From Escherichia coli (GTDB lineage Bacteria; Pseudomonadota; Gammaproteobacteria; Enterobacterales; Enterobacteriaceae), in the NCBI RefSeq assembly GCF_013315695.1, contig NZ_CP054353.1: a stretch of DNA of 64,000 nucleotides; one strand, written 5' to 3'. Within the stretch, counting starts at the first letter, position 1, and every line of letters begins with the position of its first letter. Positions 35,501 to 41,500 of this stretch are shown in pieces. The position numbers are program-made.

Positions 35501-38500
35501 CAGGTAAAGTGGTAGAGGCCATTCTCCGGCTGACTAACGACGCTCCTGAGTACCTGCCCGTCGGGTTTAATCACGTCTAACTTGATGGGTTGATCGGGCA
35601 ATGCTTTACCATCTGCATCACGCAATAAACCATTGAGGATGACTGTTTCACCCGGGCGATAAAGATCGCGCGGGCCAAACATGAAAAACTGTTTGCTATA
35701 GCCTGGCGCGCCAGCAATGTTAAATTCTGCTAAGTCCAGCGCCGGAAGTTTTAAATCGAGTAGCGTTGTCTGACCGTCTTTACGCGCCAGCAGTAATGCC
35801 GCGTTTTTATCATTTTCCAGCTGCACATGCCCCTGAGCATCACTGGTTGCCTGAGTCAGAGTCTGCCCTTTCTCATTTAATAAAGAGACTTCTATTCCTT
35901 GCTGGGCCGCGCCGTTTTCCAGACTTTGGGTAAAGATATCCAGACGATTGTGATAACGGTGAGCTGAAACGCCGATATCACTTAACGTAAACAGCGTCGC
36001 GGGATTACTGTAATCGTAACGTCCAGCCTGATTCATCACAGCCAGATACACGCCTGCCTGCTGAAGCGGTTTGATATCGCCCAGCGGCAGCAATAATTTT
36101 TCACGGGTGTTACGCGCAGGATTGAGATCAAACCGTCCAGTGTAGACCAGATCCGCCATCTGCAGCAGTTTGTCTGACTGCCAGTTCGCCAGCGAATTGC
36201 GGTATTCCCATTGGCTAATGAAAGCGGGCAGTGATTCTGGTTTCACACGGAAGAAGTTAACATCGACATTGTTAACGTTGAGCGCCATTACCGGCAGCCC
36301 TTCAATAACTTTACCAGGTAACAACGAACCACGGCTGGCAAAACCGACGCTGGGTTGGATATCACGGGTAGTTATAGTTTTTTCGTAATCTTTACTGAAG
36401 GTTGCGTTGTTGAGTGCTTTGACCTCCTTGCCAATAGTGACGATCAAATCACGTTTCGGTTCGAGGTGGCGTAAACGCAACTCTTTAAGATTATCTGACA
36501 GCTCCCAGGCACCATCCACTTTGCCGCTTTTCTTATCGACGACATGGATAACGCGTGAGAAATCCTGATCCGGATCGAGAGGAATGGAGAACGTCAGCAC
36601 CAGCGTGGCTGCGCCATCAAGTTGAACTTCAGAGAGATCCAGCAATGTCAGCGCCTTACCGGCACTCTGTTGGGCCAGTTTTTGTCGCTCCGGCGCGGAA
36701 AGTTTTGCTGAACTCACGTTTTCTGAAGAGGCCGCTTTAGTAACTTCAGAAGGCGCATCTTTTTTCACCGCTGTTGGCGCGTTATCGTTGTTGTCGCACC
36801 CTGCCAGCGCCAGCATTAGCATGCAGGCGGCTACGCGTAACTTTTTCATTTTTCATCCCTGCCACAATGGCCCGTTAGCAACGTCGAATAATTATTATGC
36901 GTGAGAATTTACGTTATGTAATTCAGTATCACGCCCATACAATCCGAATTTTAGTGAGAATTGTGGCTCAGACAGCCAAATCAGCCTCTTTTGCTTGTCG
37001 CTTTTCACTAAACATCCGACAATTTAGCCTAACCCCGGCAAAAATGGAGATGCCTATGTCCACGACATGGTTTGTAGGAGCCGACTGGCTCGCCGAACAT
37101 ATTGATGACCCGGAAATTCAGATTATCGATGCCCGCATGGCGTCGCCTGGACAGGAAGATCGTAACGTTGCTCAGGAGTATCTGAATGGACATATTCCCG
37201 GCGCAGTGTTTTTTGATATCGAAGCGCTTTCTGATCACACTTCCCCGCTTCCGCACATGCTGCCGCGCCCGGAAACGTTCGCCGTGGCGATGCGTGAATT
37301 AGGCGTTAACCAGGATAAGCACCTGATTATCTATGACGAAGGTAATCTTTTCTCAGCCCCACGAGCATGGTGGATGCTGCGCACCTTTGGTGTAGAGAAA
37401 GTGTCGATTCTGGGGGGTGGACTTGCAGGCTGGCAGCGCGATGATCTGCTGTTAGAAGAAGGTGCAGTAGAGCTGCCGGAAGGAGAGTTTAACGCCACGT
37501 TTAATCCTGAAGCCGTGGTGAAAGTCACCGATGTGTTATTGGCAAGCCATGAAAATACGGCGCAAATTATTGATGCCCGCCCGGCTGCACGTTTTAACGC
37601 AGAAGTTGATGAACCTCGCCCAGGTTTACGTCGCGGACATATTCCCGGTGCATTGAACGTTCCGTGGACGGAACTGGTGCGCGAAGGCGAACTAAAAACG
37701 ACCGATGAACTGGATGCGATATTTTTTGGTCGCGGCGTCAGCTATGACAAACCGATTATCGTCAGCTGCGGCTCTGGTGTAACGGCAGCCGTGGTTTTGT
37801 TGGCACTCGCGACACTTGATGTGCCAAACGTGAAACTGTACGACGGCGCATGGAGTGAATGGGGCGCACGAGCAGATTTACCGGTTGAGCCCGTAAAATA
37901 AGCTTTTTACAGGCAATAAAAAACCGCCGAATTTGGCGGTTTTTTATTGCTGGTCTGGTTCGCGGCCTTTCCAGCAGGTTGTATTACTGCAAGTGTATCT
38001 CGTCTACTCAATACTCGCTTTATGCATCAACGATGTCGGTGATGCTGCCAACTTACTGATTTAGTGTATGATGGTGTTTTTGAGGTGCTCCAGTGGCTTC
38101 TGTTTCTATCAGCTGTCCCTCCTGTTCAGCTACTGACGGGGTGGTGCGTAACGGCAAAAGCACCGCCGGACATCAGCGCTATCTCTGCTCTCACTGCCGT
38201 AAAACATGGCAACTGCAGTTCACTTACACCGCTTCTCAACCCGGTACGCACCAGAAAATCATTGATATGGCCATGAATGGCGTTGGATGCCGGGCAACAG
38301 CCCGCATTATGGGCGTTGGCCTCAACACGATTTTACGTCACTTAAAAAACTCAGGCCGCAGTCGGTAACCTCGCGCATACAGCCGGGCAGTGACGTCATC
38401 GTCTGCGCGGAAATGGACGAACAGTGGGGCTATGTCGGGGCTAAATCGCGCCAGCGCTGGCTGTTTTACGCGTATGACAGGCTCCGGAAGACGGTTGTTG

Positions 38501-41500
38501 CGCACGTATTCGGTGAACGCACTATGGCGACGCTGGGGCGTCTTATGAGCCTGCTGTCACCCTTTGACGTGGTGATATGGATGACGGATGGCTGGCCGCT
38601 GTATGAATCCCGCCTGAAGGGAAAGCTGCACGTAATCAGCAAGCGATATACGCAGCGAATTGAGCGGCATAACCTGAATCTGAGGCAGCACCTGGCACGG
38701 CTGGGACGGAAGTCGCTGTCGTTCTCAAAATCGGTGGAGCTGCATGACAAAGTCATCGGGCATTATCTGAACATAAAACACTATCAATAAGTTGGAGTCA
38801 TTACCAACGATGTCAAGTAGATAAAAAAGGATAGATTTTGAATTCATTTGGCTTATCAGTCCGAATTCAGACAAATATAAACAAATCCCGCTTAATATTA
38901 AAATATACTAACTGGTAAAAGATATTACTTAAACGTGTAATTTCACTTTCTTTAAACAACAAAAAACCGCCAAAATCAGGCGGTTATTTGTTGCTGGTTT
39001 GGTTCGCGGCCTTTCCAGCAGGTTCACTTGTGTTGCATGAACAACGCAGGTGCCTCACAGCAAAAGAATACTCGCTGTTAAGAAATTTTGTGTCAAGTAA
39101 AAAACGAGTAATTATTTTTCGGTTAGCGTATTATTGACACCGACCCTTTCCGCCGTCTCGCAAACGGGCGCTGGCTTTAGGAAAGGATGTTCCTTGGCCG
39201 TAAATGCAAGTGTATCTCGTCGCTTGCTATCGCGGCAATATCGCCAGTGGTGCTGTCGTGATGCGGTCTTCGCATGGACCGCACAATGAAGATACGGTGC
39301 TTTTGTATCGTACTTATTGTTTCTGGTGCGCTGTTAACCGAGGTAAATAATAACCGGAGTCTCTCCGGTAACAATTTATTGGTGGTTAACAACCTTCAGA
39401 ACAGCAGGTAAGCCCGAATGCCGCCCTTTGGGGCGGCATATTTTAGATTATCCGGTTCTGTTTAAAGTCACGCAAAAAACCACCCCAGCGACGTTCATAG
39501 AATGGCACAATATGTTCGGTAATAAAGTGGCTAATTCCTTTTTCCCCTTTTTTCACCTGACAAATATCGATGGGTTCATCGCCAGGTATTGTATCGGTCG
39601 CTACACTTCCCGCCGCCTGAATAATTTCTTCGATATCACCATCGGCTTCAATGCCAATAAGTAAATTAGGCTGTGCCTCTTCGTTCTCTTTAATTGAACA
39701 AATAAAAGCACGCTTCACCGGCTTAATAGTTTTAAATAAGGTGGTGAGTGAATCAATCATTTGTGCTGGTGGCTCTGCGACTTCCGATAATATCAGCGAT
39801 TCACCGCCCTCCAGTACTTCCTGGCTGCTCAGCGGATTTCCTTCTTCACCAATCAACAAACTGATTTCACGCGGCATAAATTCTTTACCGGTTGGCAGTT
39901 TGGCATTAAGGAAGAGCGTTTCGCCAAGGGTCATCTCAAACAATGTGCGAACGGGCATTACGACAAATGCCTGTTCGTCTTCAACCGCCTGTTGAAGTGC
40001 TTCTAACGAGGTGAAAAAAGGAATGACGCTGGTGCCGTCTTCTTTTTCCCAGTGCTGTAAATCAAGTGCGCTATCTTCAACCACAGCCTCGCCCTGCGCC
40101 GCCGTACCAGGCACCCAGACGGTGGATTCCAGTAGAGTACGGAAAAAGGCCGGGCGGTGCGCCGGTTCGGTTGCTGCTTTTTCCAGCAGGTCTTCAAGTT
40201 CGTTTTTTATTTCTGACATAAGAACCACAATTCATTCAACGTTCGGGGCACAAGTGCCTGATGCGCCACGCTTATCAGGCCTACAAGGGAGTCGCAATCT
40301 ATTGGATTTTCGCAATTTGTAGGCCAAATAAGACGTTTACGCCGTTAACAGATTAGCAATCGTGCGCACACCAAGTCCCGTAGCACCCGCAGACCACTGT
40401 TCAACCGGCGCTTTACGGTAAGTCGCCGAGCAGTCGATATGCAGCCAGCCTTGCTGATAGTTCTCAACAAAGTGCGACAGGAAGCCCGCCGCCGTGCTTG
40501 CACCTGCCGGATACGCCGCGCTTCCGGTATTGTTCAGTTCGGCAAAGTTAGACGGCAGCTGGCTGCGGTGGAACTCCGCCAGCGGCAGACGCCAGAACGG
40601 TTCATTCTCTTGTGAGGCACTCGCCAGCAAGCGAGCGGCAAGCGCATCGTCAAAACTGAACAGCGCGTGATAATCATTACCCAGCGCGGTTTTCGCCGCC
40701 CCGGTGAGGGTCGCCGCATCAATGATCAGTTCCGGTTTCTGCGCACTGGCATCAATCAGGCCATCGGCCAGCACCAGACGCCCTTCCGCATCGGTGTTCA
40801 TCACTTCAACTTTTTTACCGTTGCGATAGGTAATAATATCGCCCAGTTTGAACGCGTTGCCGCTGATCAGGTTATCCGCACAGCAGAGGAACAGCTTCAC
40901 GCGCTTGTTCAGTCCGCGCGTAATGGCAAACGCCAGCGCTCCGGTAACCGTTGCCGCGCCGCCCATGTCCGACTTCATCGAGTCCATAAATGCGGTCTGT
41001 TTGATGCTGTAGCCGCCGGAATCAAAGGTGATGCCTTTACCAACCAGGCACGCGTACACTGGCGCTTCTTTATCGCCAGTTGGGTTGTAATCCAGCGCCA
41101 GCAATACCGGGGAACGTTCTGAACCGCGCCCGACGGTGTGCAGCCCCATATAACCTTGATCACGCAGATCTTCACCTTTGGTGATCCGATAAGTCACACG
41201 ATCGCCTGCGACGTTGCTGATCAGATCAACAGCACGCTGTGCCAGTTGCGATGGCCCCAGCTCTTCCGCCGGTGCGTTAATGGTGTCACGCACCCAGTCG
41301 ATGATCATCAGGCGGTTATCCAGTTCCTGACGCTGGGCATCGTCCAGATCCGGCCACTCCACTTTACGTGTGCCTTTCGGAGCTTTGTAACCTTGCCAGA
41401 ATGCCCAGCAACGATCCGCATCCCAGCCTTCACCGCTTAGCTGAACATGTTTGATGCCCAGACCGTCAATCTTGCGCGCCGCACGCTGGATCAGCCCCAG

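Follow-up and report, generated by a model that had tools for sequence, protein, structure and literature searches.

The sseA-sseB spacer of an Escherichia coli chromosome as an IS1-interrupted timP/timR locus with two antitoxin genes and one toxin gene

The 64,000-nt stretch analyzed here (the window) belongs to contig NZ_CP054353.1 of Escherichia coli assembly GCF_013315695.1, and the locus in question occupies the spacer between sseA and sseB at positions 37918-39444. With a probability of roughly 0.85, this locus is the E. coli timP/timR system (formerly named ryfA/ryfB), an enterobacterial type I toxin-antitoxin system, in a version with two antitoxin genes and one toxin gene that is interrupted by the insertion sequence (IS) IS1. 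A timP/timR locus in the sseA-sseB spacer is already known, characterized and annotated, and no new biology is needed. The locus can be annotated as timP, two timR genes and IS1. A reading made from the sequence alone had noted a resemblance to a ryfA/TimP type I toxin/antisense small RNA (sRNA) locus, and the locus proved to be that system itself; the sequence-only reading was partly supported, having named the system correctly while getting the toxin open reading frame (ORF) and the roles of both copies of a repeated module wrong.

What is reported below on identities and coordinates, on complementarity, on the promoter lesion and on the distribution in the population was obtained directly in the present analysis. 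The gene order in this segment was the E. coli order yfhM-sseA-[spacer]-sseB-pepB, and annotation was transferred from the RefSeq genome of strain MSB1_4I, which is 100% identical to window positions 37850-39500. In K-12 MG1655, timR (b4811) is annotated 17 nt past sseA, with ryfA (b4440) and timP (b4812) 400 bp beyond. Alignment to the K-12 spacer placed the ends of all three features, base for base, in the window at 37918-38004 (timR), 39140-39444 (ryfA) and 39286-39411 (timP), and an Rfam search returned a full-length ryfA match. The toxin side consisted of:

39140-39444, + strand: ryfA RNA, the timP mRNA (Rfam RF00126, 313.3 bits against a gathering threshold of 80 bits, E 1.5e-87, model positions 1-296 of 296; K-12 ryfA ends)
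39145-39186, 39206-39227, 39228-39262 and 39263-39282, + strand: stem-loops (SL) SL1, SL2, SL3 and SL4 of ryfA, respectively (fold)
39205-39221, + strand: TimR site in SL2 of ryfA (complementarity to the TimR-A seed)
39286-39411, + strand: timP, small toxic inner-membrane protein of 41 aa (MKIRCFCIVLIVSGALL...; RefSeq coding sequence WP_004974226.1; NF040796; K-12 timP b4812)
39418-39439, + strand: ryfA terminator (terminator prediction)

The ORF stretch 39286-39408 scored 84.2 bits on the NCBIfam model NF040796 'toxic_TimP' (cut-off 45). In Salmonella Typhimurium, ryfA is the mRNA of the inner-membrane protein TimP, which is toxic on overexpression; TimR, encoded upstream on the opposite strand, relieves this toxicity, its 5' end pairing over 18 nt with the 5' untranslated region (5'UTR) of timP and blocking translation (Andresen et al., 2020, PMC7667032). 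Within that 5'UTR, SL2 holds the TimR site, SL4 locks the Shine-Dalgarno sequence (SD), and a pseudoknot between SL1 and SL3 is essential and is destabilized by TimR (Eleftheraki and Holmqvist, 2024, PMC11228461). Toxicity, pairing mechanism and pseudoknot are taken from this literature and not from the window, and would apply here by analogy. The fold of the window ryfA gave the same SL1, SL2 and SL4 as the published Salmonella RNA, with the predicted SL4 hairpin lying over the timP SD, and a 7-bp complementarity between SL1 (39169-39175) and SL3 (39243-39249) was consistent with the published pseudoknot. As in Salmonella, the timP SD would be locked inside SL4, and timP translation would require the SL1-SL3 pseudoknot. 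A TimP N-terminally extended to 45 aa can also be read from the ATG at 39274 (39274-39411); RefSeq and K-12 use the 39286 start.

On the antitoxin side, two timR genes were found on the minus strand:

37918-38004, - strand: timR-A, cognate antitoxin sRNA gene (K-12 timR b4811 ends; fold; 17/17 seed complementarity to ryfA RNA)
~37916-37947, 37948-37976 and 37988-38004, - strand: terminator, constant scaffold hairpin and 5' seed of timR-A
37913-37950, both strands: bidirectional terminator hairpin of copy A, ending sseA (+) and TimR-A (-) (inverted repeat, 19-nt arms, 95% complementary)
38955-39061, - strand: timR-B, second, non-cognate timR paralogue (constant module; minus-strand terminator; fold)
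~38958-38992, 38993-39019 and 39046-39061, - strand: terminator, scaffold hairpin and seed (type T2, see below) of timR-B

These genes account for the repeats that the sequence-only reading had correctly located, all of them far beyond chance expectation, namely a module of about 65 bp present as copy A (37918-37980) and copy B (38962-39024; 63 nt, 84% identity, the match extending to 37903/38946), and the 17-mer TGCAAGTGTATCTCGTC at 37988-38004 and 39205-39221. The 17-mer had only these two matches in the window even with 2 mismatches allowed (shuffles gave 0.02, and 0 of 100 reached 2). The module is the constant scaffold plus terminator, and the 17-mer corresponds to the copy A seed and, in ryfA, to the target of this seed, not to the coding relic it had been taken for. 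Each copy was a complete minus-strand sRNA gene, comprising a -35 element, a 17-nt spacer, a -10 element, 6 nt to +1, a ~17-nt variable seed, a scaffold hairpin (CUGCUGG...CCAGCA) and an intrinsic terminator. Copy A, previously regarded as a truncated sibling of the toxin, is a complete timR whose 5' end coincides exactly with that of K-12 timR, on the base with which the 17-mer opens in minus-strand direction, and it is the sole copy complementary to the resident timP mRNA. The fold of TimR-A had an energy of -29.2 kcal/mol (z -5.4), with 37913-37950 as its 3' hairpin. The hairpin of copy B was indeed a minus-strand terminator (38985-38965, tail TTTTGTTGTT), and it ends a minus-strand sRNA.

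The two seeds differed in their fit to the resident toxin mRNA. Nucleotides 1-17 of TimR-A were a perfect complement of 39205-39221 (-32.4 kcal/mol), whereas the longest perfect run between the TimR-B seed (GCAGGTGCCTCACAGC) and this site was 3 nt (-16.1 kcal/mol). Since timR-A starts with the exact complement of 17 nt of SL2, it is the cognate repressor; as an antitoxin sRNA of about 90 nt, TimR-A would upon binding open SL2, destabilize the pseudoknot and block TimP synthesis. timR-B adjoins ryfA divergently, carries a seed of another specificity and would be expected not to cross-repress the resident timP. Full-length RNAduplex comparisons of TimR with ryfA gave meaningless long-range structures and were replaced by a matrix of seeds versus sites, in which cognate duplexes ranged from -32 to -41 kcal/mol and non-cognate ones from -9 to -30 kcal/mol. 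The window was compared with 15 further E. coli genomes, whose sseA-sseB spacers were aligned and parsed, and four seed/site types occurred:

Seed/site type T1: GCAAGTGTATCTCGTC
Seed/site type T2: GCAGGTG[CT]TTCACAGC
Seed/site type T3: GCAAGCGCGTCTCAGCG
Seed/site type T4: ACAGGCACCCCACAGTG

In every sampled genome with both genes, each ryfA had a timR of the same one of these 4 types, and in two-copy loci the second timR was an orphan. A search of the window with up to 3 mismatches for another target of the TimR-B seed found only its own gene. An Rfam search with E values up to 1 listed no TimR family for the minus strand of copy A or copy B, and literature searches on IS128, ryfB and ryfC in E. 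coli K-12 yielded no description of copy B.

The locus therefore shares with Salmonella timP/timR the ryfA RNA family, the TimP toxin family and an antitoxin upstream on the opposite strand, with 17-18 nt of complementarity between its 5' end and SL2, over 60 nt ahead of the ribosome-binding site. An SL4 hairpin over the SD is predicted here as well, and the 7-bp SL1-SL3 complementarity may match the published pseudoknot. The opposite-strand upstream sRNA gene with promoter and intrinsic terminator was present twice, with a damaged -35 in copy A, and the 17-18-nt complementarity to SL2 was found for TimR-A and not for TimR-B. Unlike in Salmonella, the window has two timR genes per timP, the promoter of the cognate timR is split by IS1, and this gene does not adjoin the toxin gene but lay about 450 bp away before IS1 and lies about 1.2 kb away now. 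TimP has 41 aa in the window versus 38 aa in Salmonella, and a putative upstream ORF (uORF) in the timP 5'UTR has 24 codons versus 8.

The IS1 between the module copies, which had been recognized from the sequence alone, spans 768 bp and divides the promoter of timR-A:

38038-38805, + strand: IS1A insertion, insA/insB (ends and duplication; RefSeq IS1A transposase with programmed frameshift)
38029-38037 and 38806-38814, flanks of IS1: 9-bp target-site duplication AACGATGTC
38011-38039, - strand: damaged timR-A promoter (-10 GAGTAT 38011-38016; 17-nt spacer 38017-38033; -35 now CCGACA 38034-38039)
38811-38816, - strand: displaced original timR-A -35 TTGACA, now 777 bp from its -10 (contiguous in strain AF14 and in sampled loci L002 and L004)
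39068-39096, - strand: intact timR-B promoter (-10 GAGTAT 39068-39073; 17-nt spacer 39074-39090; -35 TTGACA 39091-39096)

The element ends (GGTGATGCTGCC.../...GGAGTCATTACC), the size, the inverted repeats, the frameshifted insA/insB and the 9-bp duplication are those of IS1 (IS1A). Based on a regular-expression search and alignment, TTGACA-N17-GAGTAT-N6-+1 preceded every other timR copy in the sampled E. coli loci, and the annotated K-12 timR 5' end lies 7 nt past the -10. The minus strand before insertion read CTAC-TTGACA-TCGTTGATGCATAAAGC-GAGTAT-TGAGTA-G(+1), and the IS-free sister genome AF14, with an intact TTGACA, was identical to this reconstruction. IS1 thus entered inside the timR-A -35, 34 bp upstream of the timR-A start; the duplication regenerated GACA, leaving the hexamer CCGACA, and the A/T-rich DNA upstream of timR-A was also moved 777 bp away. 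The insertion was found in 6 of 5,426 complete genomes, a set in which counts are not phylogenetically independent. In this IS1 lineage, less TimR-A is probably made, with a probable partial relief of TimP repression. The extent of TimR control over TimP in E. coli is still disputed, and strains with the IS1 (e.g., MSB1_4I) together with their IS-free sister AF14 make up a near-isogenic natural experiment on that control.

Several points weigh against the interpretation of the locus given so far. A generic promoter scan listed neither timR promoter, because GAGTAT matches the -10 consensus at only 3 of 6 positions, and the assignment of these promoters therefore rests on conservation and on the annotated K-12 5' end; the transcripts and start sites of TimR-A and TimR-B in this strain are likewise those predicted by homology and motifs. 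The hexamer CCGACA keeps 4 of the 6 positions of the -35, and residual transcription is possible. Orthogonality between the seed types was not absolute, a T3-type TimR reaching -28.5 kcal/mol on the T1 site. Deletion of timR had little or no growth or virulence phenotype in Salmonella (PMC7667032) or in avian pathogenic E. coli (APEC; PMC13188913), and the APEC study questions whether the TimP peptide matters in E. coli (PMC13188913). Because timR deletions are well tolerated, the IS1 lesion may be phenotypically mild, and a phenotype might be absent even if TimR-A were lost entirely.

The most durable alternative, a serious though lesser possibility, accepts the timP/timR identity and holds that IS1 is neutral, enough TimR-A being made from the residual CCGACA/GAGTAT or from another start. 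Four of the six -35 positions survive precisely because the target duplication regenerated GACA, selection need not have acted either way given the tolerated deletions, and the IS1 lineage persists in its 6 sequenced genomes. Nevertheless, the timR-A -35 has lost two T residues. These are among the most conserved -35 positions, and the weak -10 should make this promoter heavily dependent on its -35. Moreover, reading of the sequence at the IS1 flank revealed no usable hybrid promoter, TTGGCA in the IS1 end being separated from GAGTAT by 29 nt and no hexamer at 16-18 nt matching at more than 2 of 6 positions.

It is very improbable that copy B is the working antitoxin, with copy A an inert leftover and the IS1 insertion inconsequential. 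Copy B does occupy the adjoining divergent position, which is the canonical arrangement and that of Salmonella, its promoter and terminator are intact, and the proximal copy is the cognate one in sampled loci L002, L004 and L006. Yet in the window it is TimR-A that has the 17 consecutive pairs, against no more than 3 for TimR-B, and a distal cognate copy is shared with K-12, where curators annotated that copy as timR, and with L005. The window and K-12 have in common a timR-A beside sseA, an IS128-type spacer, a second timR-like gene and then ryfA, although the types are T1/T2/T1 in the window versus T2/T3/T2 in K-12 and L005, and K-12 is without IS1. This K-12 mosaic, a T3 timR beside a T2 ryfA, was carried at 99% identity or more by 1,073 genomes of the population set. 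Toxin ORF and cognate antitoxin are easily mis-assigned when only the sequence is read, and the antitoxin adjoining a toxin is not always its match.

A toxin encoded by the 24-codon ORF that contains the second 17-mer, as the sequence-only reading had proposed with copy A and the 17-mer as a truncated sibling, is still less credible. The ORF does exist:

39187-39261, + strand: 24-codon ORF, putative non-conserved uORF in the timP 5'UTR overlapping the TimR site (ORF list)

It is hydrophobic (grand average of hydropathy 1.29), has AGGA 4 nt ahead of its ATG, starts at ryfA position 48, lies inside a terminated transcript, and is intact in T1, T2 and T4 alleles. However, the downstream ORF is TimP, and the NCBIfam search found no family match for the 24-aa product or for that of a 48-aa ORF (39204-39350) which overlaps ryfA and begins where the TimR site does. 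The plus-strand terminator reported downstream of the 24-codon ORF is present and serves the whole ryfA/timP transcript, whereas the supposed SD is paired as the 3' strand of SL1. Among the 15 other E. coli loci retaining this part of ryfA, 8 had the ORF cut to 5 codons (MFRDR*); these comprise all 8 T3-type loci sampled (including sequence type 131 (ST131) and IAI1), T3 being the commonest E. coli allele, and the Rfam ryfA consensus has no AUG at the start position. Conservation of the ORF between alleles and relatives is thus lacking. The codons that vary coincide exactly with the TimR site and change together with the timR seeds, a constraint on the RNA rather than on the protein. In Salmonella, mutation of the start codon of a putative uORF at the equivalent position had no effect on timP translation (PMC11228461). 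Taken together, the T3 truncation, the SL1 pairing of the 'SD', the consensus without AUG and the Salmonella mutant rule this ORF out as the toxin, and a conserved coding role for it is unlikely; the promoter and terminator that copy A possesses, and its position on K-12 timR, speak against a truncated sibling.

That the module is an ordinary dispersed repeat of the repetitive extragenic palindromic kind, or a generic terminator without paralogous meaning, can be set aside almost entirely, for although it has a GC-rich hairpin with T/A runs like many intergenic repeats, and weak matches of the timR copies to the unrelated Rfam families rimP, AgrB and RNAI stem from the terminator hairpin alone, a query with the module in 5,424 genomes gave a median of 1 and a maximum of 3 places, all chromosomal, the 60 matches listed were all chromosomal with none over an annotated feature, the module was confined to the sseA-sseB spacer in the loci fetched, and each copy has its seed, -10 and -35 in register.

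Comparison of the spacers showed three architectures: a ~530-bp spacer with one timR and one ryfA (ST131 JJ1886, IAI1 and O157), two timR and one ryfA (K-12 and the window), and a full tandem timR-timP-'sseB fragment'-timR-timP (TUM18530). In K-12, timR-A is followed by a ryfA promoter, a ryfA stub of about 20 nt and 14 nt of sseB, which indicates that two-copy loci are tandem timR-timP duplications that lost the first timP. Both timR copies therefore go back to a timR-timP tandem duplication, which some strains still keep whole. In Shigella dysenteriae, ryfB1-ryfA1 and ryfB2-ryfA2 stand in tandem and RyfB1 acts specifically (Fris et al., 2017, PMC5333039). Common to that system and the window are the tandem origin, a 5-nt 'variable region' in the ryfA hairpin that sets RyfB specificity, and divergent RyfB RNAs of about 100 nt that are alike in only part of their sequence. 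Unlike S. dysenteriae, the window has a single remaining ryfA, and one of its RyfB/TimR copies is thus an orphan.

At least 4 matched seed/target alleles were present in E. coli, and orphan timR copies were common. Within the population set, about 2,092 genomes covered at least 80% of the two-copy spacer. An intact T1 timR-A was found in 392 genomes versus a T1 ryfA 5'UTR in only 38, so that the T1 timR-A is mostly an orphan. About 39% of genomes keep a second intact, non-cognate timR, and in about 20%, including K-12, this copy is unannotated and is the one directly beside ryfA. The seeds of orphan timR genes match toxin-mRNA alleles circulating in other strains. It is conceivable, though doubtful, that timPR is a polymorphic specificity system with at least four matched types (T1-T4) reassorting among strains, in which orphans could confer immunity in advance against incoming timP alleles or have other regulatory targets. 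The matched alleles and orphan genes may bear on the evolution of antisense specificity; allele mosaic, orphan copies and IS hits are nonetheless modest side observations.

The remaining features of the spacer and its edges were:

37056-37901, + strand: sseA (3-mercaptopyruvate sulfurtransferase), left edge of the spacer (RefSeq annotation mapped from MSB1_4I; ORF list)
38825-39003, + strand: AT-rich spacer between the repeat units, matching Rfam 'IS128 RNA' RF00125 (166.4 bits, gathering 80; 3 nt in place of 33 model positions near the 5' end)
39443-40219, - strand: sseB, right edge of the spacer (RefSeq annotation)

The 5' 30 nt of the IS128 model have no counterpart in the window spacer; K-12 has its orphaned ryfA promoter and stub there (TTTAGCGTAT plus 33 nt), and at its 3' end the model closes on the bidirectional terminator of timR-B. 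The IS128 family thus looks like a description of the spacer of the old timR-timP tandem, not of an independent sRNA gene. The AT-rich stretch 38815-38960 was also considered as a decayed sseB 3' end and rejected, with a local alignment score of 9 versus 9.8 ± 1.6 for shuffles. An sseB fragment was kept only in K-12 (14 nt) and in TUM18530 (87 nt, annotated as an sseB pseudogene).

The TUM18530 spacer (L007/L012) read timR(T4)-timP-87-nt sseB pseudogene-spacer-timR(T2)-timP-sseB, with each timR cognate to the adjoining timP; in E. coli, this tandem corresponds to ryfA1/ryfA2 of S. dysenteriae. In K-12 MG1655, the second timR-like gene (~2653670-2653800, minus strand; L003 ~1370-1500) is unannotated and lies directly upstream of and divergent from ryfA. 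It has a T3 seed GCAAGCGCGTCTCAGCG, an intact TTGACA-N17-GAGTAT promoter and a terminator, and is not complementary to the K-12 ryfA (T2).

In 30 of the 38 genomes with a T1 ryfA, an IS200/IS605-family element sits in timR-A between scaffold hairpin and terminator, with one exact junction (in E. coli 1190, L018 266-975, equivalent to window position ~37950). The right end of this element, read on the minus strand (CCTCCGGCATAGCCGGAGG then TTTTTC), could act as a replacement terminator. With 30 IS200 and 6 IS1 insertions, the cognate timR-A is left untouched in only about 2 of these 38. That two independent insertion sequences have hit the only cognate timR of the rare T1/T1 haplotype hints that TimR control can be lost or rewired, such changes being tolerated or favored.

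In E. coli 06-00048 (L016 ~1150-1360), the timR body runs into ryfA at a shared T4 seed/site (…GGAGCAACGCAGGCACCCCACAGTG|CTTGCTATC…). This junction is a deletion between 16-nt direct repeats, with the loss of both promoters and of ~65 nt from the start of ryfA, and the IS3-family element ISEcB1 sits at the place of sseA in other loci.

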